Assembly (NCBI GenBank): GCA_964016885.1
Contig: OZ024742.1
Span: 46,996,001 to 47,060,000 of the forward strand
Length of the DNA stretch: 64,000 nucleotides
Reading direction: 5' to 3'
Source: Eledone cirrhosa
Taxonomy: Eukaryota
The notes under the pieces are model-generated. The model was not told the DNA's origin, ran no database searches, and saw only the letters and a program-made list of their open reading frames with translations. The translations under genes and the position numbers were made by a program. Positions 2,787-64,000 of this stretch are shown one piece after another. Numbering within the stretch: the first letter of the stretch is position 1; each line of letters begins with the position of its first letter.

Positions 2787-2789
<3 letters not shown>

Positions 2790-2980
2790 AAAATGTATGA
2801 CCCCCACAGCAGAGCTCAAGCCGTTTCGACGCTATTTCTGGACTCAGAAATAGCCGTCGAAACGGCTTGAGCTCTGCCGTCGGGATCATACATTTTCCTA
2901 TTACCCACTCTACTACCCTAAGTATTGAGTATTCTGGTGCGTTATGGTCCACCTGGTTCCTTACCACTCTACCTTCGTTA
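2787..2980. mobile_element. Family D hairpin mini-element in (TA)n
   Basis: ~55-bp near-perfect fold-back (TAGGAAAATGTATGA...TCATACATTTTCCTA) plus an ~80-bp extension ending CTTCGTTA. Homologs at 34966-35160, 45248-45352, 46424-46534. Confidence 0.75.
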
Positions 2981-8514: not shown

Positions 8515-8728
8515 GTCCGACCCTCTACCGATACTGCCAATCGGTGGATTGGCAGTATCGGTAGAGGGTCGGACGCCATGCTTTCCAGCATAGTTACGTC
8601 CCTTTACGATCTGAGTTCAAATCCCGCCGAGGTTGACTTTGCCTTTCATCCTTACGGGGTCGATAAAATAAAGTACCAGTAATGCACTGGGTAATTGCTG
8701 GCCTTGTGCCTAAAGTAGAAACAATTAT
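8515..8728 (+). mobile_element. tRNA-derived SINE with inverted duplication of its 5' end
   Basis: GTCCGACCCTCTACCGATACTGCCAATC mirrors GATTGGCAGTATCGGTAGAGGGTCGGAC; TSD TTATTGAAATATTGAGT on both sides. Confidence 0.85.
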
Positions 8729-9169: not shown

Positions 9170-9310
9170 TTGATGGTCTATTTAGACGTCTGGGACTTAA
9201 AATCCCTGAAAATCTACCTAACAATATTAACTTAATAGATGTTACACTCAACCTTGAGAACGGACGCTTCTACACTTGCCGTAACCCGAAGGAAATATTA
9301 TACGACATCA
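9170..9310 (+). mobile_element. Old Hydra-type PLE RT fragment
   Basis: GLFRRLGLKI..NLPNNINLIDVTLNLENGRFYTCRNP resembles the NFLDATL.L...Y.P.HKP segment of the element at 32396-34876. Confidence 0.5.
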
Positions 9311-9952: not shown

Positions 9953-11094
9953 ACTTCCCCTGATATATGCATGTAACCACCAAGGCAAGTTATAAATAAT
10001 CATCAATCACATCTGGAGACAACATATTTACAATTAAGAGCTGTTTAGTTGTTTTTCGCCCAGCTAGATTTAGGATCCACATCTAATTGAACCCACATCT
10101 TCTAGAATAAAAGAATTAATTAGTTGATGTAATTCTAAATACATGAGTCCAGAAAGGTCGCGAATTTGTAGAGACGTTATAACGTTAGTCGAACACTTAG
10201 CAGCATTAGTTGCAGCTCTCTGTACTGGAGTTTAAATCTTACCTTGCGTCCTTTCGAATTCGATAAAAATGTAAGAGACCATTACTGGGGCCCATTCTTT
10301 CTTTATATATACTTCATTTGTCTTAATCTATCCGTAGGTCTCCATAAGTTTTAAAACTTCCAAGACACGGCCGTATGTTACAACGGCGCTCCTAAAACTC
10401 CACTAGGTCCAAGACATAGCATAGCATGGAACTTGATTTGATATCAACATTTTAGAATTGAGATATATAACGAAATCCAACAACCACCTCAAAACACAAC
10501 CAACAGAAAAACCCCCCACATTTGTAAGAACATATACTGTTTACCCTTCACCTTCAATTTGTAGTTGCTTAGTTATCGGTTTCCATACTAGATTAGTATA
10601 GAGCAAAGGTTCTCAACGGGGGGGGGGGGGCATATGCACCCCAGGGGGCGTTTCGGAACTCCAGGGGGGCGGGGGCGTTTCGGAGCAAGGGGGAATTAGG
10701 GGGGAGTTTGGAGCTTTGGAGTGCATTGGAAGGCTCTTTACTTTGGTAAGTTTTATAAGCCATATTTGTATGTCTTTGACACAGCCAGTGTGAATGCATT
10801 TGAATAAGCATGCAGACAGCATAACTATGGTCTGACTGCAGCTGTGAGCAGGTGTGCAGGCGTGTTTAGACATTAACCGGTAAAGGAGATCCTAACAATG
10901 GAAAAATCCACAGTCAACTGGGTCAAGGACACTTCAAGCGCAGCCAGTTTGAATCTTGTCTTTCCTTCACCGATAACAATGTATTTCATGTCTGAAATTA
11001 TTGACTCAACCGTAACGAGTTAACACTATGTAGATCTATTTTATTTCCTATTGTATAAATAATATTACAAATAGAAAAAAAACAAAAACACAGA

Positions 11095-11497
11095 AGCGGG
11101 TAGCACACACATCTAGGACCACATACAACACATAAGCAGGAAATACACACATCTAGGACCACATACAACACATAAGCAGATAATACACACATCTAGGACC
11201 ACATGCAACACATAAGGAGGTAGCACACACATCTAGGACACATACAACACACAGGCAAGTAATACATACATTTAGGACCACATACAACACATAAGCAGGT
11301 AATACAAACATCTAGGCCCACATACAACACATAAGGAGGTAATACAAACATCTAGGACCACATACAACACCTAATCAGGTAATACAAACATCTAGGACCA
11401 CATACAACTCATAATCAGGTAATACATACATCTAGGACCACATGCAATACATAGGCAGGTAATACATACATCAAGGACCAAATACAACACACAAATA
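11095..11497. repeat. 40-bp minisatellite, ~10 copies
   Basis: CATCTAGGACCACATACAACACATAAGCAGGTAATACA recurs every ~40 bp (11111, 11151, 11191...). Confidence 0.95.
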
Positions 11498-16040: not shown

Positions 16041-17839
16041 AACCGTGTTAGGTCTTGTGTGAGTGCAATCTATATGATAAAGAAATATCGAACCTCTCAT
16101 TGTCTATTCTGATTACATCAGTGAGTGGACCACATTCTCTCATGTATAAACTTGAATACCTAAAACTCTACGTGGCTACAGATAAGTATCATGGATATAG
16201 ACATGTTACAATGATTAAATATGGAATGTCGACTGCTCAGATTGACAAGGTCAACTTTGCATTCTTCACTTCGAGGTTAATATAATAAAAATCATTAATC
16301 TACAGGGTTTCTTGCAATCAACCTTCACCTCAATGCAGATTATCATACATTAACTGTATACATCTGTCTATTGTAACACACGGACACACACGTATACACA
16401 AATACGCACACGCACACAAATATGTATAAGCTGTGAGGGTATTTTAGATTAACTCAGTGAAACATGTGTATTCAGAAAATGTAGGCACAGACGCACACAT
16501 ACATGTATGTATGTACGCATATATATATATATATATATATATATGCGTACATACATATATAAAATTCATTTAAATGATGTAGGAATCTCGAGAGTCGAAA
16601 ATAACTATAATAATAGCCGATTGCTAAAATAATAGCTTAGATAATCTGGTATTTGAAGGATACGGTGCCCAATACTTCTTAAACTATTCTAGGGGTATTT
16701 TATCAGGTTGGTTAAGCTATAATTTCGTACATTTTATCAATGAATTTCAAGAAATACACAGCCCTTCGATAACTTGTATAGTACATACACTTATAGATAT
16801 ATAGATAGATACATACACACAAACACATACATACATACATACATACATACAGGATGGCTGCAAACTCGTGTTCGAACATTGCTATCGCCTGATAAAATGC
16901 TCAAAAATGTGAGGCATGGATGTGGCTCTTTAAACCAGCCAAAGACTACATCCTCTTGCATACATGGCAACTGTAGACTCCTCCGGGACTTTCCATTCTA
17001 TTTTTTTTCCGACGAGTTTCATACGTACGTACATATATACATAAAACATATATAAACACAAACATAGATGCATGCACACATAAATACATACTAGCATACA
17101 TACATGCATACATAGTGGCTGCCAACTCGTTATCGAGTATGGCCACTACTCTATATCCATGTAGGAGAACCCCTACCGATGGGCTGAACGAGTGTGACTT
17201 TTTAGTCTAGCCTGTGACATAAAAACTCTGGTACAAACACTACACTTGTGACAATTATTGACACATAGTGCTGGGCCCATGGTACCATGTGAGGACAAGT
17301 GCAGAGAGATCTCCAGATATAAAGCAATGCCTGTGCCGTGAAGCTTTTATAGTGAGCAAAGGCACTGCACAAAGCCAGTCCCACTCTCTTAACCAAGATG
17401 ATATTTACCAAAAAGAAGAACAAGTCAACATCATTGGATACCATCAGGGTTGCAGGTTATATCAGAGTTTTCCTTCTCCTAGAATTCTGCCTTGACAAAG
17501 GCTAAGGGGTCATCTCTCCCGGTGATTTTGGATGGCCATTTACTCTTAAGAGCTCCTTTGCCCTTTGACAGGTTTTGTTTTTAGTCCTGCAGGATGTCCA
17601 AAGAAACCTTGGTGGGGCTGCCATTTTAGTCGCCAACGACCCGACCATGGGACAGGTTGTACTGGGATGCATGTTACCAGTAGCACCAACATAGACATAC
17701 ATATATCTATATACACACATACACACAGACATAGATGCCTGTCTACACACATACATACACATGTATATATATACATACATATACATATGGATGCCTACAC
17801 ACATACAATCAAATGATAATATTCCAATTACGGACTCAA

Positions 17840-18690: not shown

Positions 18691-19503
18691 TTACAATAAT
18701 CAAAATTCAATTTAAATCATTTATTTGCTTACAATTGTTTCCTCCAAACCGAGGTTTGGATTCTTCGGAGCAACTATTTAGTGATCTATAACATACTTGC
18801 CCACCTTTTCAACACAAGAGACATATAAAAACTTATGCACATATTGATCCACAGTGGGATGACATCCATCAAAATACTATATATAACAATGTCAGACTGG
18901 AACCGTCACCACCCCTAGCAATTAGCATCAGTAGCACACCTCACACCTCATCTCCACACCCATTTATATACTCTAAAGGTAATACTGGCAGCATTATAGC
19001 ACCATCTACCCTGGGGATACCCCCATGTACTTCTAATTCTGACATCTCAGCCGTGGATTACTTAAACTGCATTGCACAAATATATGATTAATGTAGACAC
19101 GGTATTGGTTGTGCTAACATAGTCCTGTGCATGGAGTGCCACCATGAGATAGATTGATGATTAAGTAAGTAATCTTATCATTATGTGACTATATATTCTA
19201 TACGATCAGTACAATGAATTATGCACAGGTGATACATCAGTTAGGAGTCTCTGTGTTGCTTGATGACCTGACTAGTATCTTTTGATGAGAGAACGGGTCC
19301 CCGGACCACCCTGGTGAACTTACCGGGAATGCAGTCATACAATGACCCGAAACTTGCCGGGAGTCTTGTATGATAATAAGACCATTATTAATAATAAGAC
19401 CCTTATTAGTAGTGAGACCCTTATAATTAATTTTGTAGTCTGACTCTTCTTATGGATTGTCCAGGTGTGGCACTCCATATTAGATTGTAATCATCAGGAT
19501 ATG
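18690..19503 (+). mobile_element. Family B PLE fragment: inverted terminal arm (18690-18870) + sense 3' UTR (18870-19503)
   Basis: 18690-18870 matches 30392-30575 directly; 18880-19500 matches ~31790-32400 inverted. Confidence 0.8.
18725..18773 (-). ncRNA. Type I hammerhead, CCGAAGA core (family B)
   Basis: TTGCT-CCGAAGA-A-TCCAAACC-TC-GGTTTGGA-G-GAAACAATTGTA-AGCAA. Confidence 0.75.
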
Positions 19504-28699: not shown

Positions 28700-28997
<298 letters not shown>

Positions 28998-29471
28998 GAA
29001 TGTATTGTATATATAATAATATACTGTATGTTTATTTCAAAACATTTTGAATGCCATTCGTTATATACTTTAAGTTAGTTTCGGCAAAAAGCGAAGGGGA
29101 GTAATCGTCGCTAACCATTTCTCAATCGTAAGTGGTTGTCAAGACTGCATACCTCCTCGCTTTTGCCGAAAGCTATAGAAGCTGGATTCATAGAGAATTC
29201 CAGTTATGTTTATGAGCTGTTCAAAATCATTAACATATAGAGCGGTTGTGGGACCAATATAAATTAAAAATTAGTATTAGTGCTCTGATATAGCGATGTA
29301 TACATGAATGTACGTATTGTATATTTAATAACATACTGATATACTGTATATTTACTTTAAAACATTTTGAAGACAATTCGCTATGACTTTAAAGGTAGTG
29401 ACTAACGTCACATACCTAGTCTTGTACGTGGTTCTCAAGGCTACATACCGCATCGCTTTTGCTGAAAGCTA

Positions 29472-30145
<674 letters not shown>

Positions 30146-30294
30146 TATATACATATATATATATATATAATACATATATATATATATATATAATACATAT
30201 ATATATATATATATAATACATATATATATATATAATACACATATATATATATATATATATAATACATATATATATATATATATATATATAATAC

Positions 30295-30395
<101 letters not shown>

Positions 30396-30426
30396 CAATA
30401 ATCAAAGTTCAGTTTAAGTCATTTAT

Positions 30427-30475
30427 TTGCTTACAATTGTTTCCTCCAAACCGAGGTTTGGATTCTTCGGAGCAA
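30427..30475 (-). ncRNA. Type I hammerhead, CCGAAGA core (family B)
   Basis: Identical to 18725-18773. Confidence 0.75.
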
Positions 30476-32395
30476 CTATTTACTGATCTATAACATACTT
30501 GACCTCCTTTTCAACCCAAGAGAGACATAAAACATATGCGCATATTGATCAACAGTGGGGTGACATTCATCAAATGATATAGCATGGCAAATTACATATA
30601 AAGGTTACAGGATAAAAATAAAATAAAAACAAGAATGAAAATAAAGATAAACATGAAGCGTTGGCAGTCTATGAAGATAAAGCAAGAGGAAAGTTTAGAG
30701 TAGTCAGTGTATGAAACAGTCTCACGTGTAGCATGCACGCGTGTCTTATTTATACATGATTAGAGTGCGTCAGAATGATATTTGCAGGGTCAGGCAGTTG
30801 ATGCAGGCAATCGATCTTATTATGTGGACTGGATTATTAAGTCATTTATTCTCATACATCTGTATGATATACAGTCTCGGATGCAGGGAAACACCAAAAT
30901 ATCAAAAAATTTCCACATACTGTAAACCTTATTGTATCGTAGGCAAGGCCGTACCACTGTCCTTGATCACACCACCACTCACATAATCCATGAGACGCAA
31001 TATATATAGAGAACACTTGTCTATCGTATAATGCACGGTGGTTCAGCATATAATCAAGCTATAAACCGTATCCAGTCGGTTCTTAATTAATAGATCATGC
31101 TGTCCAGATTCCGGAAGTGTCTGAATGACTAAGGGAAATTAATGCGTAAGGGGAGGTAACTAGCTAGTTATCTTAGTTAAATTACTATCCTAAACTACAT
31201 TAATGGTGATTCAAATACGTGCCTATCATATGATGTTATAACTAATTTCTAGAGTATGTTTCTCAAGTATAGGTTAGAGAGTTGTCCATTAAGAAGTACA
31301 AGGGTGTATATATTAGGATGATTACCATCCATTAAGGGGTGTCATATCTGAACGTTCTATAAGAGGAGTCAGACTCTCAAGTCACTGTTCCATGCAAATG
31401 TAATATAACAGTAGGACCTGGTATGGTCCCGCTATTATATATGCCCCCCGGTAGGCTTCGGGTCATTGCATGTCTGAATCTCCGGTAAATCTTCGGTATG
31501 GTCCGGAGATCCAATTTCTCATATAAAGGCACTAGTCTGGTCATCAAGCAATAGACAACCCCCGTCTCATATATAAATCAATTAAGTATCACATCTACAA
31601 GTCAGAGTGGAGTCTATTAATAGGTACTAAAGGAGTTCACATCAAGATGATTACAATCTGGAGATTAAATCTCTCATACCAGGGCACCTGTCTGGCCACC
31701 AAGCAATACATAAACCCACGTCCCACATATAGATCAGGTATCCCATCCACAAGTTAGAGTGGAGTCCAGTAACAAGTACTAAAGGAGTTCGTATCATGAT
31801 GACTACAATCCAACATGGGGTGCCACACCCGGCCAATCCATAAGAAGAGTCAGACTACATAATTAACTACATGGGTCTCACTATCAGTAATGGTCTTATT
31901 ATCATACATGACTCCCGGCGAGATTCAGGTCGTAGTATGACTGCATCGCCGGTAAGTTCACCAGGGTGGTCCGGTGGCCGGTTCTTTCGTCAAAAGGTGC
32001 CGGTCAGGTCACCAGGCAACACAGATGCTCCTAACTCATGCATCTCCCGTGCATAGTTCATTGAACTGATCGTTTACAGTATATATTCACATAACAATAC
32101 GATTATCTATCTAATCATCAATCTATCTCTTGGTGGGAATCCATGCACAGGACTATGTTATAGCAACCAGTACCGTGTCCCCAGTTTATACTAATCTTAT
32201 ATTTGTGCAATGCAGAATAAGTAGTCCACGGTCGAGATATCAGAATTAGAGGTACAAGGGGGTATTCCCAGGGTAGGTGGTACTAAAATGCTGTCAGTAT
32301 TATCTTTAGAGTATAGAAATGGGTGTGGATGTGAGGTGTAAGGTGTGCTACTGATGTTAATTGCTAGGGGTGGTGCCGGTTCCAGTCTGACATTA

Positions 32396-34876
32396 TTATA
32401 TATAGGGTTTAAAGTTTTGGAACGAGTGTCGGAAGCGGTGTTGGCAAGTTGCGAACACTTCTGATTTTTTATTAAGGAGATTATGTTTAGAGAAGATGAT
32501 AGTATGGGTCTCTAGTAGACAGAGGTTACAAAATTTATTAGGTGGTTTGTACGATGTTGCACTACCTACCACTTCCCATTTAAGTGTATATATTTTATTT
32601 TTAGTTTTTAGATGGTGTATGTAGCTAGATAGTGAAGTGGAGTTGGCTAGACTGTGTTTTTTGAAAGAGTGGAGGTGCGAATTGTATCTAGTTTTGAAGC
32701 AGTTAGAAGTGGAGCCTATATAGGTTTCAGAAGAGCTGTTAGTTGTGACTGTACATTAGTATATGATATCCTTGGTTAAGCATTCTTTATCTAAAGGGCA
32801 GATTCTACTTGATCTACAGTTACAATTACTCTGGGTGCTAGTCTGCCGGTTACTATGCTGTGTAGAAGTTTGGATGTTAGCTATAGGGTTACGGTTATGT
32901 GGGTTGTGGTACGCAGCGTTAATGTTTACACTAGTGTTATTACTATTATTTCCATTGATATTACGGTTATTTGTTATAATGTTACTTTGACTGTTATTTT
33001 GAATGTTATTTTGAAGGTTTATCGACCGTTGTGATTTAGTTTGTTGGAAGTAAGAATTAATTTTTCTTTTATTTGTACTAGCTATGTGGTATGCTAAGTT
33101 AGGCGTAGTAGAGTATGAGATCTTAATAGTGTTTTTGTTTAAAAGGCCGTGGTACCTGTGGCCGGATGGGAAGTGTTTATCTAGTAGTGAGAAGAAAGCC
33201 CTAGGAAGGTTGGTAGAGACGTTTAAATTGAAAGGAGGGTTGAAAAATGTATTATTTCTTCTTCTATTTCTGTTTTTTATGTGTGGTGATTTGTTTCCTT
33301 TAATGTCCCTATGGTCATTTCTGTGGTGCGGGTTACTTTTGTTGTTACAATCCCTATTAGTGTGTGTGCAGTTGCTATTCCTATTATTAAATTTTCCCAT
33401 GGACATGTTGTGTGAAATGATGTAGCTATGTGTTTTTGTAGGTAGGAACTCTATCCCTGTATTATGGCCTGATCTAGCTAATGCCTGATTATAATACTGC
33501 GAGTTATTGTTAAATGTGTTTATGTCATAGGATTGATTAGAGATTCTATTAGATACTCCCTTAGAGATAGAGTTCAATATAGATTTAGGGTGGTTAGACT
33601 TGGTATCTACGTAGATGAGTTTTTCATTAGGTTTGTGGAAAGGTGCATATATCATTGAGTCTAAATAGAGTGTGGCGTCTAGGAAGTTGACGTTTTTGGT
33701 GTTTTTGTCCATGGTAATACTAAGGTTAAAGTTTTTGAATGTTTTGTGCAATAGTTTTCTAGTCCTTTCTATATTGAAAGTTTTATAGTCTATAAGTAGA
33801 AGTGCATCGTCGCGATACAAACCACCGCTGAGGTACGGAAGTTCCCTGTGGATTAGGTTAAGTAAGTATAGGCCAACTAAATCAGTGACCTGCGCCGAGT
33901 CACTAGACCCCATAGTAATGTCGAAGTTGTTTTGCGTATCCTTGCGGGTCCATAATTGGTCTTCAAAGGTGATTATTGTTTTACGGGCCGCAAGTATGAC
34001 ATCAATCTGGGGTCTAGTCAAGTCACTATTGTCCATGGCCATTATGAGTGCCTTATTTAGTAGGATAGGGGAAATAGAGGTGTAGTAAGAGTTGATATCA
34101 AATTGAATACATTTTTTATCCTTGTTATCTATGATATTTTTGAACCATTCAATCACTTCACCCGTATTTCCCCATTGTTTAAGGTAAATCTTGTGTTTAA
34201 TCTGTGGGATGATTTTGTCTAGGATTTTTTTACTGATAATGCCAATGTCAGACCTGGAGGGGCAGATTAGTCTAATCGAGGGGTTGCTAATGAAGTCTAC
34301 CTTATGGTCCTTCAGAGAGAATTTAGGGGGGTTTGGGGTGTAAGGTTGTGTATGTCTCTGGAGCCCTAGTTTGGATACTATATTATAGCCTTCCATATTA
34401 ATATCTTCCAAGTTTTTCATAGTGGTTTTCTTGTAGCTTTTATGTAGTTCATTATATATAAACTTTCTATACGTATTATAATCTAGGCTGTATATGTTAT
34501 TAGTTTTGTCGGCATGTACAAACATTTTACTACTAGTTTTGAAGTCATTAATAGAGGTGCTAAGTTTGTTTAAGAAGGTGTTGTTTTTATTATGGTGTTT
34601 TTTGTATTTAATGTTTTTAACTAGTTTAATTAGGTCGTTTTTGAAGTGGTTTAGTAGAGTGTTATGAGGGGGGCTTCTAAATGTTTTAAAGCCGAAGGAG
34701 TCAAATTTGTTGGTGTTATTATCCTTGCCAGATTTGTTTCTATCATAATGGAATGTCCTCCATATCACTCTATTGATAAAGGAGTTTACACTCTTGATCA
34801 ACAACTTTTCATATGTATTTTTGGTTGGTAAAGGTATGTTCTTGGTTGACATAGGGAGTTGGTCTTTGATCAGCAT
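32396..34876 (-). pseudogene. PLE reverse transcriptase-GIY-YIG endonuclease ORF (827 codons, one internal TAA at 32756-32758)
   Basis: RT motifs FDINSYY, MGSSDSAQVTDLVG, YRDD, NFLDATL; linker CNCRSSRICPL (CxCx5C). Past the TAA the same frame gives CTVTT..ETYIGST...FKTRYNSH...KWEV...FCNLCLLE...LLNKKSE...CQH. Confidence 0.92.
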
Positions 34877-34965
34877 GCTGGTAATTTATGGTATATCAGC
34901 TCAACAAAATGGAGCAGTTATTCAGCCGTCGGGGTCCTACTCGTTCCTATATATATATATATATA

Positions 34966-35156
34966 TAGGAACGAGTAGGACCCCGACGGCTGAACTCAAG
35001 CCGTTTCGACGGCTAATTCTGTCCATAATTACCCGTCGAAACGGCTTGAGCTCAGCCGTCGGGGTCCTACTCGTTCCTATTACCCACTCTACTACCCTAA
35101 GTATTGAGTATTTTGGTGCGTTATGGTCCATCTGGTTCCTTACCACATTTCCTTCG

Positions 35157-35160
<4 letters not shown>
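34966..35160. mobile_element. Family D hairpin mini-element
   Basis: TAGGAACGAGTAGGACCCCGACGGCTGA...TCAGCCGTCGGGGTCCTACTCGTTCCTA plus extension to CTTCGTTA. Confidence 0.75.
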
Positions 35161-35186
<26 letters not shown>

Positions 35187-35190
<4 letters not shown>

Positions 35191-35485
35191 ATAATAATAA
35201 ATTTGAAGACTAAAATCCAAAGAGGGCTCGATAAGGATAAATATATATAAAATATATAAGAACCGTAGAGTAAATATTTATTAAAATAACAGATTAAAGT
35301 TTAAGCAAAGAATCGCTGCTTTCACCCTTAACAGGATCTTCTGAAACTAAAAAAATAAATCTGTGAACGCAGAAGTAAATATTTCGAAAACGTCGCGAAA
35401 GAAGACAGGAAGACGATACTTTCGTTCGTGGAGATGTTCCCTGGCAAAGAACGGAAAAAATACGAAAATAATACGTCATTATTTG
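35187..35485 (-). mobile_element. Family A PLE 3' terminal fragment with HHR
   Basis: Homologous to 51412-51710. Confidence 0.85.
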
Positions 35486-35498
35486 GAGTGGTCTGAAC

Positions 35499-35571
<73 letters not shown>

Positions 35572-35577
<6 letters not shown>

Positions 35578-38271
35578 TAGTGAAAAATTGAACTGGAACA
35601 AAACAGAGAGGCAGTACGAACAAAGGTTTATTAGTTTCACGCTCTTGAGAGTGGGGTGGTGGTAGGGAACGACGTTTCAGGCATAAGCCCTTCTTCAGGC
35701 AAAAAGTGTGTGCGGGAGAGAGTTCCAAGGGTGTGTAGGGGGGTGGGGAGAGACATTTAGAAAAAAGGGGGTGAGAGGAAATGGTACAAATGAAAATAAA
35801 TATAAAAGCATAATAAAAATAAAAATAAACATGAAGTAAAACAAGTGGTGGAAGGGTGTGGGGTGTGTAGGGGTGTTGGCGGGTGGAGTGGGGAGAGGGA
35901 GTCGGGGTGTCCGAGTGGGGAGGGCTGAAGGTGGTGTGTGTGTGTAGGGGTACGTGTATGTTTGTGTGTGTGTATGTGAATGTGAGAGTTGGGGGAAGAA
36001 CGGGGTTGCATGTTCAGGAAAAGGTGTGTGTGGGGTGGGGTGTAAGTCGGTGTGTGTGTGAGTGTGTGGATGGAGAGGGGTCCTATGGGTGGGGAAGGGG
36101 GGGGGGAGGATTCCGGAGGCTGAGTGTGTAAATATGTGGTGGTACGCACGTGTGTGTGGTGTTTATACGTATTGTGGTTGTAGGTAGCGTGTGGGAAAAC
36201 AAATGTGTGTGAGTGTATGTCCGTGGGTAAGTTCCTAAGGTAGTTCCGTAGAGAATGTGGTGGAACGCTGGATAATTTCCTTGTGATGGAGTTGATTCGT
36301 GGGAGGGATGTCCAATGTGTGTAATCCGTGGTTGGGTTGGTCGGAAGAGGGGAGATGTGGGGTGCGCACGCAATAGGAAGTGGCCAAAGGGTCAATGCAG
36401 AAGGAGGGTTGTCTGTCTATGTGTGCGGAGAGGTGCGCAGAAATTCAGGTCATAGCAGAAGTAGGGGAGAATGGTAGGAGGAGAAAGTCGGTGTGTCAGT
36501 GTGTGCGGAGGTGCGGTGGACAGGGGATGGGATAGGTAGGTGTGAAAGGGTGAAGTGGGGAGGGTGTGTATTAGTAGGGTGTTAGTTGGATGTGTGTGTG
36601 TGTGTGTGTGTGTGAGAAGGGGTGTGGGTGGAGCGCGGAGAGGGAGGGGTCGATAACGGTGTGGGGGCCGGTGGAGGGAGTGTAGTGTACTTGTGTTTGT
36701 GTGCGTGTTTGGATGAGTGTGTGTGTGGTGAAGTATACTGGTGGTGGGGAAAGGGTTGAATGCGGGTGTTAGTGAGGGTCAGTGGTGGTAGGGTGTGTAG
36801 AGTGGGTGCTGTAAGTGGGTATGTGTGTTCGTGTGCGTGGGGTCGGGGGGATGTTAGTGGTATTAGTTGTAGGGTGGTGGGAGTGGATGTGTGGGTGAGG
36901 GTTAGTGGTGCTAGTAGGGTGTGTGGTTAGTGTGAGTGCGGGTATATATGTACCGGTGGGTGTGTGCGTGATAAGGGGAGGGGGGAGGGGAGAAGAAAGC
37001 ATGTTAGTATTGTTAGTTGGGGAAGGGTGGTCGGGTGTTGGGTGGGGTGTTAGTTGTGGGGTGGGCGGTGAAAAGGTGGGGTGTGTTAGTGGTGTTAGTG
37101 GGGATATTTGTGTGGGGGCGGTCGAAGGCTAAAGGAATAGGGGTGGGGAGTTCAGGCCGGGGGAGTGTGGGTCTGTAGGGTGAAGATGGTGCGTTATTCG
37201 ACCCTGAGGAGGGTGGCGGGTGTTCCGTGGCATTGGAGTAGGCCACAGACTGCGAGGTGGTGCGCGGAATGTCCAGGGGAGCCAAAGTCGCGGGCGATGG
37301 GGGAACTACCGCCGAGACGAATATCTCGGAGGTGTTCGGAAAAACGGTCCGCCAGGCGGCGTCCAGTCTGTCCGACGTAGGTTGCGCTGCACTTCGTGCA
37401 GCGAGGTCCATAGACTACGTTGGAGGAGGTGCAGCAGAAGGCATGCCGGACAGAGAGAGAATGGCGGTTGGGACCCTGGAAGGTGGTTGTGTTGGTGATG
37501 TGGGGACAGGTGTTGCAACGATACCTGGAACAGGGAAGGGAAACGGGGGGGGGGGGGCTGCGGACGAGGAGGGTGCGGAGATTGCGTGCGCGTTTGAAAG
37601 AGGGGAGTGGTGGGGCTGGGAAGATGTGGGAGGTGGAGGGGTCGGACTGGAGGCGTCGAAAGGGGGAGGAGGATGGTGCGTTGGAGGGGTAGGGTGGAGG
37701 GGTGGTAATTGATGGGGAAGGAGAAACGGTGGGTGGGTGGGCGGTGGCGTGGGGTGAGGGTGGTGGAGCGCTGGACAGCACGGGCGGGAGTGAGAACAGT
37801 GTGGACGAGAGAGGGGGGTAACCTCTGCGGATGAAATGGCTGAGTAGAAAAAGGCCCTGGCACTCAAAGTCAGCATCTCGGCTACAGAGGCGGCGGATCC
37901 TGAGGAGTTGGGAGTAGGGAATAGAGTGTTTAGTGTGTGTTAGGGTGGGAAGAAGTGAAGTCGAGGTAGGAGGGGGAGTCAGTGGGTTTGAAGAAGGCGG
38001 AGGTGACGAGGGAGTGGTGGGAGGGGTCGCAGGCGACGGAGATGTCTAGGAAGTGGACGTGGGTGGTGGAGATAGAGCTGGTGAAATGGAGGGAGGGGTG
38101 GAAGGAGCAAAAGAAGGAGGGAAAGGAGTCGAGCTGTTCTCGGGTAAGGGTCGTGGCTCCGATACAGTCGTCGATGTAACGACCGTACAGTTCGGGCGTG
38201 AGGCCGGTATACTGGGCAAAGATTTGGGCCTCAACATGGCCAACAAAATGGTTGGCATAGTTTGGGCCCAT
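35572..38271 (-). mobile_element. Neptune-type Penelope-like element, 5'-truncated, frameshifted
   Basis: MGPNYAN...RYIDD...FLDISV...FKPTDSPSYL (37930-38271); PCSRYRCNTCPHI...CTSSNVVY..RCTKCSATYVGQTGRRLADRFSEH (~37100-37600); CT-rich 3' UTR; HHR CTGAAGA-AGGGC-TTAT-GCCT-GAAACGTC at ~35666-35703. Confidence 0.85.
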
Positions 38272-38518
38272 TATATATATATATATTTATCATTTATTTT
38301 GTTTGACCTGTTTAGCTTGATTTGTTTTTTGGCTTAGGTGGTTAATGCCTTCTTAACCACTTTTTCAGTTTGTATGGCGATTTAACATATTGTTTAGCTC
38401 TGGTTTTTTAACTATTGAGCGGTTGCCAGCATTTCTACGATTTTGCGTTTCGTTTCGCTTTTTCTACCACCCGAAATACGATTCTCGCTGAATTATATTT
38501 GTATATATATATATATAT

Positions 38519-39129
38519 AGAAGAAAGAAGAATACTGCGTGGTTGCACATAGGTTACATATGATAAAAATAGTCCTACGTCAGAGATTTCTAACCATCAT
38601 TGGTATTTCATCGCATTAAAAATCATATACCTCAGGTTGGTGCGGGCAATAAATAAAAAAAGTTATTGGGACCAGTAAATCGCGTAAAACGAGGGGGACA
38701 CGTGAACAACATAGAAGGATAAAAGCAAACCAAAGAAAGGAAATAAACAAGCAACATGGTAGTCCTGGTCAGCATAAACTGGGTGGATTTCAATATCGAA
38801 AGGTACAGACGTCCGGCGTGAGTGGGATGTAAGCAAGAAGAGATCCACTGTAAGCCAAACGGGAGGAAGTGAGAAGGGGAGAAACAGAGAGTGAGTGAGT
38901 GGAAGTGCGAGGAAGCGGTCAGTCGAGAGAAAGTGTAACTGACAGAGAGTGCGAAAGAAGGTGAGAGAAACAGAGAGAACGGGGAAGCAGTAAGAGAGAA
39001 ACAGACAAACACAGCCGAGGTGAATATATATAAAAAACATGAGAAGAAAGAAGAATACTGCGTGGTTGCACATAGGTTACATATGATAAAAATAGCCCTT
39101 CGTCAGTGATTTTCCAGCCATCATTGGTA

Positions 39130-39132
<3 letters not shown>
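38519..39132. mobile_element. Non-coding insert with ~90-bp terminal direct repeat, in (TA)n
   Basis: 38519-38609 is repeated at 39042-39132. Confidence 0.65.
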
Positions 39133-39168
<36 letters not shown>

Positions 39169-39169
39169 T

Positions 39170-40470
39170 CTTTTTTTTTATAAAATGGAGACAGTAAACA
39201 GAAAACAAAAAAAAACTCGGAAGCGAAGAGGCAGTACAAATGTTATTATTAGTTTTACGCTTGAGAGTGGGCGGGTGGTTGACGACGTTTCGGGCATAAG
39301 CCCTTCATCAGGTGAAAAAGTGGGCAGAAAGAGGGTTCCGAGGGTGTGTGGGGAGTGGTGGAATGAGATAAAAAAGTGGGGGAGAGAAACGGAGGAAAAG
39401 GAATATTAGAGTAAAAAAATTAAAAATAAAAAGATACAAGTGGGGAAAGGGTGTGAGGCGTGTAGGGGTGGTGGTGGGTGGAGAAGGAGATGTGGGGGAG
39501 GGGGTCCGAGCGGGGAGGGCTGAAGGTGGTGTGTGTGTATGTGGGTAGGTGTACGTGTGTGTGTGTGTGTATGTGTGGATGTGAATGTGAGAGTTGGAGG
39601 AAGAACGAGGTACCATGCTCGGGTAATAGGGAAACCGGTGTGTACATGTGGTGGGGTGTAAGTCGGTGTGTTTGTGCGTGTGGATGGAGAGAGGGCGCGT
39701 GATGTCAGGAGGCTGAGTGTTTGTATGTGGGGATACGCACGTGTGTGTGTGTGTTTATATGTCGTGTGGATGTATGGTAGCGTGGTGCGAAAATAGTATA
39801 AGTGTTTGTGTGTGTGTGTGTGTTGCTGGGGTTTTTCCACTGACTGTGAGACCAGATGTTGGTGATTCTGAGTGTGGCAGGATGGATCCTGGTATGGTAG
39901 TGAGGAAGTGGAGAATTGTGGGGTGCGCGCGCAACAGGAAGTGGTCAGAGGGTCGAGGCAGGGCGAAGTAAGTGGGAGGGAGGAAATAGCAGCAGGGAGA
40001 TGACAGCAGGCTGTAGTGTGGGGGCTGACAGGTATGGAGAGGTCAGTATGTGGTGTGATATGTGTGAATGTGTGTGCGGAGGTGCGATGGTCAGGGGTGG
40101 AGATGGGTAGGTGTGAAAGGTGGAGGGAGAGGATGGTGGTGTGGGAAGTTGGTGTGTATATCAGTGGATGTGTTAGTGTGGAGCGAGGGGGGTAGAGCCG
40201 GGAGAGAGAAGGTGTTGGGGACGGTATGAGGGAGTAAAGTGTACTGGTGTGTGTGTGTGTGTGCGTGTAGAGTGGGTGTTGGTATTACTGGTGGTGAGGG
40301 AGGGGCTGAATGCAGGTGTGTGAGTGTTGGTTAGTGGTAGTAGTAGGGTGTGTGAATAGTGTGAGTACAGATGGGTGTGGGTGCACGGATGCTGGGGGAG
40401 GGGTGGCGATGTTAGTATTATTAGTAGTGGAGTGGGCCTGGGGGTGGGGGTGTTAGTATTGTTAGTTGTG
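39170..40470 (-). mobile_element. Second Neptune-type 3' UTR copy with HHR at 39279-39316
   Basis: Collinear with 35590-36880; TTCAC-CTGATGA-AGGGC-TTAT-GCCC-GAAACGTC-GTCAA. Confidence 0.8.
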
Positions 40471-42604: not shown

Positions 42605-42983
42605 ATTTATTAAAATAACAGATTAAAGTTTAAGCAAAGAATCGCTGCTTTCACCCTTAACGGGATCTTCTGAAACTAACAAAGTCAATCTGTGAACACA
42701 GAAGTGAATATTTCAAAAAACGTTGCAACCGGAAGAAGACAGGAAGACGATACTTTGGTTCGTGGTTAGATTGTTTTCCTACTTGGTACGGGTATGTTCT
42801 TTGTAGACATATTCAGATGTTGTTTCTGCATGATGAATATAAGTCAATAGAGTGCTCAACCGAGGGAGCCAAATAGTAATAATAATAAATTTGAAGACTA
42901 AAATCCAAAGAGGGCTGAATAAGGATAAATATATATCAAATATATATGAACCGTAGAGCAAATATTTATTAAAATAACAGATT
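42605..42983 (-). mobile_element. Family A PLE terminal fragments (X-ended 42605-42765; Y-ended 42874-42983)
   Basis: Match 51500-51660 and 51412-51520. Confidence 0.75.
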
Positions 42984-43117
42984 CGAGAGGTCCGGCATTT
43001 GGGATGGGGGGACGAAGTGGAGGATAGATATATATGTAGATACCAATTTAAATAGGGGGCAACCGCAGTTAAAAAATGTACACAATACATTATAGAGTTT
43101 ACACATCATTATTAAAT

Positions 43118-43516
43118 AAAGGGCGGTGGATTGGCAGTATAGGTGGAGGGTTGGACGCCATGCTTTGATGCATAGAGTTACGGCCCTTGCCATTCTGAGT
43201 TCAAATCCTGCCGAGGTTACCTTTGCCTTTCATCCTTACGGGGTCGATAAAATAAAGTACCAGTAATGTACTGGGTAATTGCTGGCCTTGTGCCAAAAGT
43301 AGAAACAATTATTAAATACAGGGCGGTGGATTGGCAGTATCGGTGGAGGGTTGGACGCCATGCTTAGACGCATAGAGTTACGGTCCTTTATCGTCTGAGT
43401 TAAAATCCCGCCGAGGTTACCTTTGCTTTTCATCCTTACGGGGTCGATAAAATAAAGTACCAGTAATACACTGATATAATTGCTGGCCTTGTGCCAAAAG
43501 TAGGAACAATTATTAA
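43118..43516 (+). mobile_element. Head-to-tail dimer of full-length tRNA-SINE
   Basis: GGGCGGTGGATTGGCAGTAT...AAGTAG(A/G)AACAATTATT twice, period ~200 bp. Confidence 0.9.
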
Positions 43517-43849
43517 ATATAGAGATGGCTTCTACACGACTATGATTGTTTCGTTCGTATGAAATCATAAGGAATGCCGTATGTTGTAGAGAATTGTTGA
43601 CATTAGGTTTCGTAATGGTTGGGAATGGTAGTCGTGGTGGGGTCCTATTTTAAGGAGCAGATATCAAGTAGTGGATTAGAGGGGGAGGAGGGAAGGAGTG
43701 GGGTAGGAGGTTGTGTTGGGAGAGTGGGTAGAAAGGAACAAAACCGTTTTGAGTAGGAGGCGGAGAAGTATTTCAAAAGATATACATACATATAAACACA
43801 TATATACACACGCATTTCTTAACATTTTATATTTTGCTTTAAGCAACAT

Positions 43850-44275
43850 ATAATTTGGAAAGTGATGGTAAGATGAAGGTGACGAAAAAAGATAGTTACC
43901 TGGTAAACTTTGTGTTTCTTTTTCGTTGCTGTAGTTTCTTTCGTCCTAATATTTCGGGAGCTAAAATTCCTATATTCCGGTTTCTTCTTTATGGAATTAA
44001 ATTTAGATTTGATGATGGTTGCTTTGTTATTCACAAGAATATGGAGGATGACGTTAATTGCGGATTTAATATTTCATGGAATTAATTTTATTGTATGAGA
44101 TGTTTAGGCTGCGTGTGTGCGCATCGTATTGGTGTGTCATTTATCTTGACATAAAAAGGACACACTCACATCCACAATTTAAAATCCCGAAATATTAGGA
44201 CGAAAGAAACAACGGCAAAAAAACAACAAATGATTACCAGGTAACTAACTTATTCGTTACCGTCAACTTACCGTC
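43850..44275. repeat. Diverged inverted repeat
   Basis: TTTCTTTCGTCCTAATATTTCGGGA (43935) mirrors TCCCGAAATATTAGGACGAAAGAAA (44184); AGTTACCTGGTAA/TTACCAGGTAACT. Confidence 0.6.
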
Positions 44276-44383
44276 AATTTTGCATTGTTTAACCTTATAT
44301 CACTTATCACATTATACACACACACGCACCCGCACGCACGCACACACACACATATATATATATATATATACATATATATATAC

Positions 44384-44434
<51 letters not shown>

Positions 44435-44508
44435 CGTGCGTGTGCGTGCGGGTACGTGTGTGTGTATAATGTGATAAGTGATATAAGGTTAAACAATGCA
44501 AAATTGAT
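44274..44508. repeat. Palindrome centred on (TA)n
   Basis: TCAATTTTGCATTGTTTAACCTTATATCACTTATCACATTATACAC is mirrored exactly at 44460-44508. Confidence 0.9.
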
Positions 44509-44514
44509 GGAAGT

Positions 44515-44742
<228 letters not shown>

Positions 44743-45249: not shown

Positions 45250-45348
45250 ACGAAGGAAAAGTGGTAAGGAACCAGGTGGACCATAACATACCAAAGTACT
45301 CAATACTTAGAGTAGTAGAGTGGGTAATAGGAACTTGTCTCACTTGTT

Positions 45349-45352
<4 letters not shown>
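45248..45352. mobile_element. Minimal family D element
   Basis: Y end TAACGAAGG... and a 7-bp fold-back TAGGAAC/GTTCCTA at the X end. Confidence 0.75.
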
Positions 45353-46423: not shown

Positions 46424-46530
46424 TAACGAAGGAAAAGTGGTAAGGAACCAGATGGACCATAACGCACCAAAGTACTCAATACTTAGGGGAGTAGAGTGGG
46501 TAATAGGAACGAGTAGGACCCCTACTTGTT

Positions 46531-46534
<4 letters not shown>
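46424..46534. mobile_element. Minimal family D element
   Basis: TAGGAACGAGTAGG-ACC-CCTACTTGTTCCTA fold-back. Confidence 0.75.
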
Positions 46535-50297: not shown

Positions 50298-51258
<961 letters not shown>

Positions 51259-51318
51259 TCCTTATCGTGCCTTCTTCGGATTTTAGTCTTCATATTTGTT
51301 ATTATTAATATATATATA

Positions 51319-58402: not shown

Positions 58403-58436
58403 ATATAAAGGTTTACATATACATAAACTAGACAGA

Positions 58437-58477
<41 letters not shown>

Positions 58478-58481
<4 letters not shown>

Positions 58482-59146
58482 GTTTTTGGCAACCATTCAC
58501 GGTGTGGCTCAATGACGATTTAATTAATTATACAATCAACAATCAGAGCAATATAAAAGAAAGTAAGTCCATAGAATCATTTGATAAAATATATACAGTA
58601 TTTCTACTCCCAATCAGCATAATCAACCACATAAAAAATCAATTAAACGAGGCTATAAGTTTAAAATGTACCTATGAGCAAACGATAGCTATTTTATCCG
58701 CGATCTACAGCCACAGAATATTTACCCAGTATTTCTAATAGCCCGTAGAAATGGACTAGACATATAGCTAACGATATACAATTAAGTACAAAATCAAAGT
58801 TAGAAAAAAAAATGTAAATAAACATACCAAAAACATGGTTCTACCCCCTGAGGTTTCATTCGCTTGTTGGAAATATCCGATCATGGATAAATCAACGAGT
58901 TTCGAAATCATCAAGAAACAAACTCAATTGGACAAAGATTTTTCTTAAATGATCCCCGCCAGAAACGAATTCAAAATGGCTAAGAATTGTCACATGGCCA
59001 GTGGTCAAGTCAGAAAGCTTGTGATTGGTGCCTGACGGCGAGTATGCTGGTTGTATGAAAGCGCAGCTGAATACTGCCTAAAGTGTTACTCAACCTTACG
59101 GGAGTATATAAAATATAGAGATTTACATATACATAAACTAGACAGA

Positions 59147-59152
<6 letters not shown>
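58478..59152. mobile_element. Family H two-ended insert
   Basis: 58482-58648 matches 61617-61805 directly; 59095-59152 matches 61812-61870 inverted. Confidence 0.55.
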
Positions 59153-59196
<44 letters not shown>

Positions 59197-59200
<4 letters not shown>

Positions 59201-61462
59201 AGGAAGCAGAACATTGTTTATTGTGATCCAGTTCGTGGTTACGAAAGCCAGTTTCATGTACGGGTTCAACGTACGGATAGGGGTAACTCCAAAAGTTTGT
59301 AAAAATTCCGTTCAGTCTTGGAGTATAAAGTATAAAAGAGAAAACACAGGTAAGCATTAAGAGAAGGATTTTATCCAGGTATTTACGACCGTTTCATTGG
59401 TAAGTGCAACCTTATATTGCTATACAGCAAATAGCAGCCACTCATTTATAATTGTTGTTCACGTCCAAATTTTCAAAATAGTGAGTAAGTTACTCTTGAA
59501 ATAGTTCTTAATATATAGAGAAACACATTTTTTTGGAATTGTATTTACTAGTATAGAGAGAGAGGAAGAGGAATTAGAAAGTGAGGAGACAAACGGAATA
59601 GTATAGAGAGAGAGAAAGGGGGAGTAGAGTTAGGAAGTAGAGTGACAAACTGAGATGGAGGGAGGGGTAGAGGTGGAAAGATTCCTTGATCAGTTTTGAT
59701 ACGTAGACTTCATGCCGTCTATTGTAGTGAGTTAAAGAGAATTAAATTGATCATAGTGGGAGGGATGGAGAGTGAGAGTGAGGGGGCGGGAGATATAAAG
59801 AGATAAATATATATATAAAAAATAAAGATAAAAATAATAATGATAACAATAAAAGTAAAGAAGGGGGAGAAAGAAGAAAAGAAAAGATAGCCAAAAAGGG
59901 GAGGGAAGAAAGGAAGAAAACGAAGAAATAGAAGAGGAATGAAGGAGAAGGGAGGGATATAGGTATTGGTTTCTGTGGGTAATTAAAGGGGTTAGATACA
60001 ATAAGAGGGTATAAAGTCTAGGTATATGCAGTTTGTCAGTTGGTAGTAAGAGGTTAAGGGTTCGATTTACCCTTGTAGTGCGAAAAGTTTTCTTTGAGTC
60101 TATGGCTACAATAAATTGATCTTTCGATTTTATTGTTGAGTAACTTATTCTTCGAACTCAAAATGTGGAACAGCTCAAGGTCACATAATCGACAGCTTCT
60201 CATACCACTCCGATATGGAGGCGCGTTCGATAATTTTTTCCACTTCAGGGTGTATTGATGGTTACTTTCCCTCAGGTCTTGTTTGCAAGGGTAGTTACAT
60301 AACGATGCTGGGAATATTTCATTGCGTAACGGTTTCATATACCAATGGGCTTTAAATGTATTCCCAGTCGCACCGATATAATACCATTTCTGGTTGTCTG
60401 GTTCCACTGTGCATTGGTAAACCAGGTTAGACTGCATACATTCATTATGCAATGGACAGGTTTCAGGTAGGTGGCAGTTACAATTCTTGTCATGGGCAAC
60501 TTTGGCATTATTGGTGGGCTGCGATGCCTGTACAAGTGTGTTACGTTTTGTTTGCCTATTATTAGGTGGTTGTGTATTAGATATTCTGTTGTCTTCAATG
60601 GTGATTGTATTGTTATTGTTATAAAATTGTGTTCTGGTGTTGTTATGTATCTTTTTAGCGTTAAGTACCTTAATGTGTGCCTCTATATTTGGTGCTGTGG
60701 AGTAAGATAGTCTAATAGATTAGTGTTAATGATTTTGCTGTATCTATGTGAATCTGGAAAGTGCTTATTTATTATTCTAAAGAAGGTAGAGGGTAGGTTA
60801 GTACCAATAGAGGTGTTAAATATGTGGTTATACCAAATATATTTTCGGCTGCGTGACTTGTTTGATTTCGATGTTGTATTTCTATTTACCGTATAATTTG
60901 TAGTTCTATGCGTAAATGCGTGTGTGCGTGCGTTTCTCGAGTTTGTGTTATGCGTGTTCGTGTGCGCTTTGCGGAGGCTTTCATCTATATATTCTACTCT
61001 ATCTAAGTGGCCTGCCTTGTCTAATGCGGTATTGTAGTATTCTGCATGTTCCTCAAAGATTTGTCGGTTAGACGAGAGTCGGGAGATCCTAAGGGATATG
61101 CTGCGTGGAATGGATTTAATTATGGATAGTGGGTGGTTGAGTTACAGTTGATGTATGCTAAGTTTTCATTAATCTTGTGAAAAGGTCTTATAAGTCCCGT
61201 ATTTAGGTTAAGTGTTGCGTCTAGAAAGTTAACTGTTTTAGTGCTATACTCATACGTTATGCTAAGGGCTAGTTTCCCGAGAGTCTTTCTAATATTCTTA
61301 CGGGGTCTTTCTATGCTCTGGTTATTTAGGGTCTTAACTAGGAGAAGGGCTTCGTCTCTGTAGATTCCACCGTGAAGATCGCTAAACTGACTCTGTAAAC
61401 TATGGGCTATGTAAATACCTACTAAATCTGTGACTTGAGCCGAGTCGTTATCCCCCATCGTG
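59197..61462 (-). mobile_element. Hydra-type PLE (family G), truncated in RT, frameshifted
   Basis: MGDNDSAQVTDLVG..GGIYRDE..NFLDATLNL (61120-61460); NLVYQCTV..YYIGATGNTFK..KWKK..CRLCDLE..LLNNKIE..CSH (60054-60452). Confidence 0.9.
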
Positions 61463-61476
61463 AATGGTTGCCAAAA

Positions 61477-61621
<145 letters not shown>

Positions 61622-64000
61622 TGGCAACCATTCACGGTGTGGCTCAATGACGAATTAATTAATTAAACAATCAACAATCACAGCAATATATAAGTAAGTA
61701 AGTCCATAGAATCATTTGCTAAAATATATACAGTATTTCTTTGATAAAATATATACACTATTTCTGCTGCCAATTAGCATAATCAACCATATAAACAATC
61801 AATTATATATCTATGGCTCTGTCTAGTTTATGTATATCTAAACCTCTATATTTTATATACTCCCGTAAGTTTGAACCTTAGTTGAGCGTTTTGTTCTTGA
61901 CACCAAAAACATCAAAAAGATGCGTGATGTAGTTTTCTTTTAGACTGAAAAAATACTGTTCAAGCAGAGATCCACGAGGAAGACTGTTTCAAACCTGCTC
62001 AATGCGTCTAATATATCTGCGTTGTGTATGTGTATGTATGTTGTGGTGGTATTTATATTTGCCTAGGGGTACACTGTTCAACTTTCCAGATCCCCTTTGA
62101 AGCATGTGGTGTGTGCTGTAAAGGGGATCAAATTGATATTTGAAGTAGTTCCCGCATAAAGGTATATTTCTTGATTCTATATGAAAGGTTTTTAATGATA
62201 TTAACGTTATTTAAACCTTGTTCAGCTTTACTCGAATAGATGTATGCTCAAAGTCCGTTGTCAAATCTCATTTTATATAGCTTCAAGTACCTCCTTACTT
62301 TTCTTTTATTTAAAGACAGTAAAGGCTGATTTGATAGGTATGGAGCCACAATGTCTGACTGGACGTATGCCTTATTAAAGATAGTATAGTTATTGTGTAA
62401 CACTAGGTAAGCTAAGATCGATGTCGACTATGGTCAAAAGCATTTCAACCCTGACCATCTCTGTTTTTTCAGACCATTCAGATCTTGATCAATGTGTCCT
62501 CCCCTTTTTGTTCATGGTGAGTTATGATACTGCAATTTCTATCATTTTATCCCTAGTAGTCCTTTAATGTTTACTTTTAAGGATTATGAGGAGAGCGGTG
62601 GATTAGAAGAGACGTTAGAGTATCGGTAGATTACATTTGGCTATACCTACTGGCTGTCTGCGTTCTGTGTTCTATTATCGCTGAGGTAACTTTACCTTTC
62701 ATTCTTCCGAGGGCGATATAATCAGCTTCTTCAGTTCTCTTAGCATGCTAGGTTGTTAGAAATATTTCATAAACATTTTTATTCTAACGAATTCGTTTGT
62801 CAATTAATTATCTCTTGTTGTTTATGTTTCTGCCGGTTTGGAAAACGATATTGTGTAACTGATGTCGCTTCCTGCTAACACAGTTGGAACAGATATGCGA
62901 CATCTGTTAGGCTTCAATTTTTTTATTACTCTTTCTATTAATATATGACTAGTCCATTCACTTAATTAGTGTTTTTCATAAAGATGACCTCTCTACGTAT
63001 TCAACTTTACATGTTTAAAGAGTCCTGCCTATTGTTTTATTTATTCGTTTGCATTTGTCACTGCTCTTGTTATTTGTGTTCGTCGCTTATATTAATTGCC
63101 TGTGTCACTTATGTTATTTTCATGTCGTGTTGTATGATTGATATTTGTGTTATTTATCCAGTAAGCCAGTGGATTTTAAGAAAAGTAGCACAATATTGTT
63201 ATTTTCTTGACCAATATAGATCAGACATATAATCAAAACCATTCCACAAGATAGTGTCTCATGAACTACTCATCCGTTGTATACATAATTAAAAAATCAG
63301 TGTGGTTTGAACGATAATTGGCTATTATTTCTAGCAAGTTGAGCGATCGTATAGAGAATTTGTCGTTGCTACGCGTCAGCAATAAAACATCTGTAGAAAC
63401 TGACATTTATTGTTCCGAACACTTTTGGAAGAACTCACTCAGTATTACTTCATTTTCATAAAAATGTAAAACTAATTACTTCTACTGCGATTTATTCTCG
63501 ATATTTTCTGCTACTTAATGTTACCTTTGAAGAAATCAACAAGTAGTTAAAATGCAAAATATATTAAAGCAATGATTATAACAAAAACAACTTAGGCCCC
63601 CGATTGCAAGATTTTAAGAGAGGGCCAATAACACAAAAAAGTGTGTGCTATTTAGAGCGGTCAATGATGAACCTATATAGAAAAGGAAACGGAAAAGGAA
63701 AATAAAATATTATAACATTTCCCGACAAAGCTTTCCATGCCGGTTTCTAATTTAGGCACAAAGTAAGCAAATTGTGGGGGAGAGAATGTCGATTAGATAG
63801 ATTCCAGAACCAGAATTGGAGTGGCGCATTATTTTATGGACATCTAATAAAATCTGCAAATCCTAGCAAGAATATTCTGTGTTAGGTAGATATAAATTGT
63901 ATTGCTTTTACATGTATTGCTTACTCATTTACGTGTTCCAGTCATGTTATAAAATGTGGGCTAGTTGGGGTTGCGTTTGCAGCGCTCCAATCAATAAGAT

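Follow-up and report, generated by a model that had tools for sequence, protein, structure and literature searches.

In a 64,000-nucleotide stretch of DNA from Eledone cirrhosa (the window), a full-length Hydra-clade-like Penelope-like retrotransposon (PLE; family B) has its 5' end joined to an inverted copy of the sequence lying at the other side of a (TA)10 tract. Positions 34921-34994 constitute a perfect palindrome of 74 bp (37-bp half), whose arms comprise 27 bp each, the right one being situated at 34968-34994. The palindrome shows an insertion that forms an inverted repeat with DNA adjoining the putative break, around a self-pairing central sequence, and its likeliest cause is fold-back synthesis from a self-pairing TA end, completed by microhomology joining and coupled to the insertion of family B; we consider this explanation probable (the likelihoods given here and below are judgements rather than computed values). 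A perfect mirror at this place had been announced by the original prediction and is borne out, and the span given for it (34921..34995) starts correctly and ends one base too far, since the palindrome stops at 34994. The mirrored “target” is, as judged from sequence, the end of an earlier insertion of family D, i.e., a repeat end and no unique host DNA. The features under discussion are collected in Table 1.

Table 1. Position, strand and main traits of the features discussed in the text (window coordinates).
Feature	Position	Strand	Remarks
Mirror 6 of 6	16506-16557		13-bp low-complexity mirror (at 16519) around (AT)13; no PLE nearby
(TA)n(GA)n tract at the 3' end of family B	30049-30392		Other half of the putative target
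Family B, full-length Hydra-clade-like PLE	30393-34920	-	4528 bp; ends match the unit boundary in the relative L008
Hammerhead-like motif near the 3' end of family B	30434-30470	-	Descriptor scan: CCGAAGA, 8-bp stem, GAAAC, palindromic loop, GTA
Mirror arm	34921-34947		Inverted copy of 34968-34994; far side without TA tract; fused to the 5' start of family B
(TA)10 tract	34948-34967		Palindrome centre; putative break site and fold-back primer
Family D insertion	34968-35157		Two opposed 5'-truncated PLE 3' ends
Family D, tail-less arm	34968-35024		
Family D, second arm	35025-35079		
Family D, tail	35080-35157		78 nt
Double mirror (mirrors 3 and 4 of 6)	44436-44534		Between two TA blocks; no PLE cDNA
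Mirror 5 of 6	51253-51307		Piece of family C tail; TA on both sides
Family F, Hydra-like PLE	59197-61461	-	5'-truncated inside RT; tblastn
Second mirror at a PLE 5' end	61459-61637		21-nt arm and (CA)27, then (TA)26, (TG)17 and flank; joined to family F

Family B comprises a 44-nt leader, an ORF of 826 codons on the minus strand (from 34876 to about 32396, with a single in-frame stop at 32756-32758) and a 2-kb 3' region. Its start at 34920 precedes the ATG by 44 nt, and identical spacing is found at the unit start of the sister family C, where tail, TA, 44 nt and ATG follow one another at a tandem junction (42766-42983) in the register of B. The C copy in question (42607-42983), in which tail, TA, 44-nt leader and ORF start are fused to an internally deleted 3' end, provides through its tandem junction the definition of the C unit boundary. 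The leader motif GCTCC...GTTGAGC is common to B, C and outside relatives. Because both ends of B fit a unit boundary, the mirror arm is no part of B, whose natural start it adjoins, and comparison of the arm with the B 3' region gave no match; in this sense, the joining of the mirror to the 5' end of B, also claimed beforehand, holds, with position 34920 directly abutting the left arm at the unit-start spacing of C. The element is inserted in (TA)n, with TA tracts at both its ends, and the loss of a TSD cannot be judged here because TA flanks both sides.

The single ORF encodes RT followed by a C-terminal GIY-YIG endonuclease, and the RT motif reads YRDD. The endonuclease was matched to PF01541 with an E-value of 5e-4 and 20.6 bits, slightly below the cut-off of 22.6, and the Pfam search on five stretches other than the endonuclease returned no RT family match. 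Several motifs described for the Hydra clade in section 11 of PMC8557442 (DKT, CxCX5C, absence of CCHH, CxxC plus CxH) were recognized: B carries DKT in place of DKG (ADKTN at residue 125), the linker CxCX5C is present (CNCRSSRIC), the GIY-YIG domain is devoid of an internal CCHH (a single Cys between IIY and YIG), and CNLC (CxxC) and CQH (CxH) occur near the end. Besides, B reads IWR at the RWK position (among the relatives, R in 116/120, W in 117/120 and K in 93/120) and GFKT at the GxKF/Y position. By these motifs, rather than by placement in an RT tree, B would be Hydra-clade-like, and “Hydra” in the original prediction is best read as this PLE clade. The 4528 bp of the element exceed the <3 kb general for the clade, a length that PMC8557442 treats as a tendency and no rule. 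The hammerhead-like motif near its 3' end shows CCGA in place of CTGA, falls below Rfam detection and recurs at 18768, in a partial B-like copy (18691-19503) with an internal inversion, whose inverted arm starts almost at the B stop codon and which directly abuts, at 19504, a C copy to which it is fused. The motif GCTCC...GAGC(A/G)CT was observed in leaders and tails across distant hosts (34860-34920 here; L002, L003, L005, L008-L011 and L013 outside); tail and leader of this PLE group look duplicated, and the motif may represent a protein-binding or RT-start signal.

The two arms of the adjoining family D insertion are identical at 49/51 positions, and other D copies in the window (2788-2978, 45250-45350 and 46426-46532) show the same build with differing arm lengths. 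The D tail carries the family motif GAG(C/T)(A/C)(C/T)T, and a GAAAC-hairpin-GTC stretch resembles the 3' half of a hammerhead, the stem after GAAA being able to fold; D may bear a hammerhead, with no Rfam hammerhead match. In fact, the Rfam scan of the whole window produced sub-threshold hairpin matches only and no hammerhead, and the palindrome itself scored 65 bits against a miRNA model with a cut-off of 70. Such a build is known as the inverted PLE structure (PMC8557442, section 6) and agrees with what was shown for an anole PLE, in which RT starts at two sites and both strands are cut (PMC11167929). D was also considered as a MITE, a candidate ruled out by its varying arm length, its one-sided tail and ends that fit PLE anatomy. 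In 4/4 clear D insertions a tail arm is present and TA lies on either side; the mirror arm has neither.

An exact 27-mer match has a probability of about 2e-18 under a base-composition null, which is unsuitable for a mirrored flank that is itself a repeat end, the proper null being given by the other tract ends in the window. The mirror arm matches the adjoining inner D arm at 28/28 positions (one tract A included) and the copy D4 at 19/20; compared with the tail-bearing partner of that inner arm, it shows a single difference, at the last base (base 28). The identity of 27/27 between the arms is weak evidence for local origin because D subfamily copies are about 95% alike. The base at 34921, once taken as proof of local copying, was dropped in that role, as it could be a TA remnant; since this is the sole discriminating base, the palindrome site alone cannot prove local copying. 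Fold-back priming, as put forward in the original prediction, is nonetheless the best explanation, backed by the mirror at family F and the double mirror at 44264-44741, and unproven by the B site alone.

Inverted identity between flanks was scored for every TA-containing microsatellite block in the window (58 blocks), with a threshold of 12. Mirrored flanks were found at 6 of the 58 TA blocks (cognate end pairs), against 43 of 6612 non-cognate pairs scoring ≥12; the latter predict 0.38 mirrored blocks (binomial p 2e-6). This null is lenient because ends of the same family gather at single tracts (family C does so at 51253, and family H near 58403-61874). None of the 81 non-TA microsatellite blocks was mirrored (Fisher p 0.0045 against 6/58; 0.011 once the insertion at 51253-51307 is removed), and among random spacers 2/3000 were, both being known self-inverted insertions. 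The window supports local copying at TA blocks. Two of the six mirrors call for a separate reading. The piece at 51253-51307 was tried as a fold-back product and rejected, as its similarity to its neighbor does not exceed that to 4 other C tails, and TA flanks it left and right; by these similarities it is to be taken as an independent insertion. The mirror at 16519 is counted among the six and is doubtful, similar scores being reached by non-cognate pairs; it may be another fold-back scar or chance. In other places, tail and tail-less ends are co-directional rather than facing (C near 42607-42983, at 42984-42990; H near 61619-61874, at 61806-61874).

The double mirror consists of the inverted left flank (44264-44345) fused head-to-head with the inverted right flank (44722-44741), with a 2-nt TG overlap at the fusion point. 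Its left part matches the left flank in 77/82 columns, whereas the left flank and its own distal twin are only 81% alike; its right part matches the right flank at 20/20 positions, and this flank has no other copy in the window. Since cDNA is absent there, at least one of the two arms must start from a TA end. The double mirror favors fold-back in its own right, and suggests repair by the host. At family F, the mirror arm matches its neighbor at 20/21 positions and another H copy likewise at 20/21; (TG)n is found only in the neighboring H end, the one other comparable H end being devoid of it. The ACG at the F junction is a Thr codon conserved in 111/120 relatives, and probably represents microhomology.

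Concerning the order of events, D would have been inserted first, by two-ended priming, and B later, in the TA tract left of D. The B endonuclease would cut this tract, the left end priming the cDNA from 30393 to 34920, and the right end would fail to take the customary PLE route of RNA priming, which leads to a self-inverted arm. The 3' strand of the right end, presumably the primer strand, would be exposed by resection and pair with its own TA repeats; the snapped-back end would then be extended by 27 nt along D, unwind, and be connected through microhomology end joining with the completed cDNA. The strand that resection would lay bare on the right is the one with its 3' end in TA, which fits fold-back. 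The microhomology at the rejoining points amounts to at most 1 visible nt at B, to the presumed ACG at F and to TG at the double mirror.

A host repair polymerase is favored for the extension because the same scar is present without PLE cDNA. The telomerase-related PLE RT itself may instead copy the flank from a TA hairpin primer and jump onto the cDNA, as a regular second 5'-joining route, an alternative to which we assign a limited weight. At 8515-8574, a SINE-like repeat is headed by 28 bp that repeat its own 5' end in inverted orientation without mismatch (28/28), with no central TA tract; this self-inversion resembles cDNA snap-back and, like the double mirror, points towards fold-back and host repair.

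A separate family D insertion had been named by the original prediction as one of the findings that would speak against it, and a same-family insertion of this kind does occur in the window for family C (51253-51307). For D, it would mean that the second end, or a later break, was primed on D RNA, leaving an independent or trans-primed 27-nt fragment, which we regard as rather unlikely. The arm begins exactly at the normal tail-less start of D, and tiny independent insertions occur (C at 51253-51307; H at 58403-58439); furthermore, a PLE protein is described as able to nick inside its own pLTR (PMC11167929), and L1 insertions can combine cDNAs of two RNAs (PMC11702581, section 7). Nevertheless, such an origin requires a D piece without tail partner (0/4 clear D insertions), the absence of a far-side TA tract and an end falling exactly at the natural start of B, and it leaves the double mirror and the shared (CA)n at F unexplained.

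An identical product would be yielded by other forms of local copying, in which the cDNA 3' end invades the flank and is extended back to the TA tract, or a hairpin-capped TA end is nicked off-centre and unfolds; the chances of this explanation appear slim. The opening of a hairpin would be expected to leave arms shorter than the 20-80 nt seen here, which counts against the hairpin-cap variant. This variant fits the cleavage of TA cruciforms reported in cells (PMC13645644), and the invasion has a parallel in R2, whose cDNA 3' end seems to prime infrequently on rDNA close by (PMC11371274). On the other hand, the double mirror, with its arm started from a TA end, opposes cDNA invasion, which would also need a strand that resection should remove.

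Two further explanations are very improbable. The mirror could predate B, through fold-back repair of a TA break followed by insertion of B beside it and loss of the outer sequence; mirrors free of PLE cDNA exist (44436-44534; possibly 16506-16557), but the second event must end exactly at the arm, and this at two sites (B and F). Similarly remote is the idea that D is the own 3' end of B, the arm being an ordinary self-inverted 5' arm and the 2-kb post-ORF region a separate element: the D tail has the family motif and the other copy of the 2-kb region starts near the B stop codon, yet the B 3' end contains a sense hammerhead-like motif and terminates in TATTGTAAT, the B start reads TAACTGCTCC and the L008 unit boundary TATTGTAATGCTCC, and no similarity was found between D and the B 3' region. 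Lastly, an assembly or library artefact at the TA palindrome is hardly credible, as the other mirrors show diverged arms and unequal microsatellite lengths, and the arms are short and continue into a coherent PLE start.

With regard to the generality of the mirror, the window contains 7 ORF-bearing PLE segments, 6 of them with resolvable 5' junctions (the ends of the ORF fragment 9178-9303 are not resolvable, and it was excluded from the count). Two junctions are mirrors (B and F), three are self-inversions (near 1500, 19900 and 53700) and one is a direct TA join (38271). The last one belongs to a GC-rich, 5'-truncated PLE of another type (35574-38271, minus strand), which bears at 35698 a hammerhead-like motif (CTGAAGA...GAAAC) and of which a diverged copy is found at 39169-40470. 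Outside the window, 13 loci (L001-L013) were covered, 7 of which contain 20 TA blocks, at a TA threshold of 4 units versus 5 in the window; none of the 20 was mirrored, a result compatible with the window rate (p 0.11-0.16) that gives it no support. The extension of the mirror to PLE 5' junctions in general, as originally predicted, goes too far: it holds for two window junctions, the other 4/6 and the 20 outside TA blocks being built otherwise; the mirror is neither PLE-specific nor the usual 5' outcome. Among the outside relatives, the full-length L008 has a direct TA join, and L013 bears a 26-nt inverted arm of its own at its ORF-bearing 5' end, which shows that an arm of this type can be the element's own. 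These 13 loci come from bacterial genome records; they encode PLE proteins of animal type in surroundings rich in TA microsatellites and inverted repeats, and are probably host-animal contigs binned into MAGs. In the window, the region 28882-39170 holds many PLE-like insertions of several families with TA tracts alone between them, and is apparently one target hit repeatedly. Other repeats include a 40-bp minisatellite (10 copies, 11087-11494) and a tandem 200-bp SINE-like pair (43108-43519).

The making of PLE 5' junctions and second strands is described as an open question (PMC8557442, section 15; PMC11167929). Flank mirrors are readable where (TA)n hides TSDs, and would score the fate of the second DNA end: RNA priming (self-inversion), fold-back (mirror) or direct join. 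They would likewise flag TA breaks that have been repaired, and annotators should be warned that such palindromes can mimic MITE ends or microRNA hairpins. If the PLE RT produced them regularly, the inverted target duplication would become a countable signature of PLE cutting, abortive cuts included, and this route, if true, would have seeded thousands of short palindromes in TA-rich genomes. Among the matches listed in a literature search of openly accessible papers, no flank mirrors at PLE or TA-target junctions were found, and the consulted portions of a paper on Octopus vulgaris repeats (PMC13282606) and of a retrozyme preprint make no mention of them.

The underlying chemistry has already been described; what is new is its setting at TA-targeted PLE sites, possibly at a high rate, and no new principle. 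Inverted duplications of about 5-34 bp have been reported from fold-back at double-strand breaks (PMC11724301), snap-back SD-MMEJ includes TA/AT primers (PMC5728401), Pol theta is reported to extend stem-loops (PMC11292364), MMEJ takes place at breaks in TA repeats (PMC13645644), and a PLE protein was found to cut both strands (PMC11167929). As in snap-back SD-MMEJ and fold-back in these reports, a short inverted duplication is primed here by an inverted repeat at the end and joined to the other end, and the arms, with 20-27 nt, fall within the published 5-34 bp, one arm here reaching about 80 nt. Unlike them, the primer would be here a long (TA)n, the partner is a retroelement cDNA, and an assembled animal genome carries the scars in fixed form. 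In L1, the non-primer target end is likewise rearranged or copied before cDNA ligation (PMC11702581, sections 7 and 13; 3 + 3 cases); those cases are reported as rare and without self-complementary target, whereas here 2/6 resolvable ORF-bearing junctions are concerned, a very small sample. R2/PRINT snap-back, as described in PMC11371274, likewise leaves an opposite-strand copy at the 5' junction, made from cDNA or from target close by; its proposed primer is the cDNA 3' end, while the target TA end is favored here. Finally, ordinary PLEs combine inverted 5'-junction sequence and (TA)n targeting, as observed here (PMC8557442, sections 6, 11 and 15; PMC11167929), and the two RT start sites flanking the tail given in these two sources account for family D; but the inverted piece of an ordinary PLE corresponds to its own 3' end, whereas the arm of family B corresponds to its neighbor across the TA tract.
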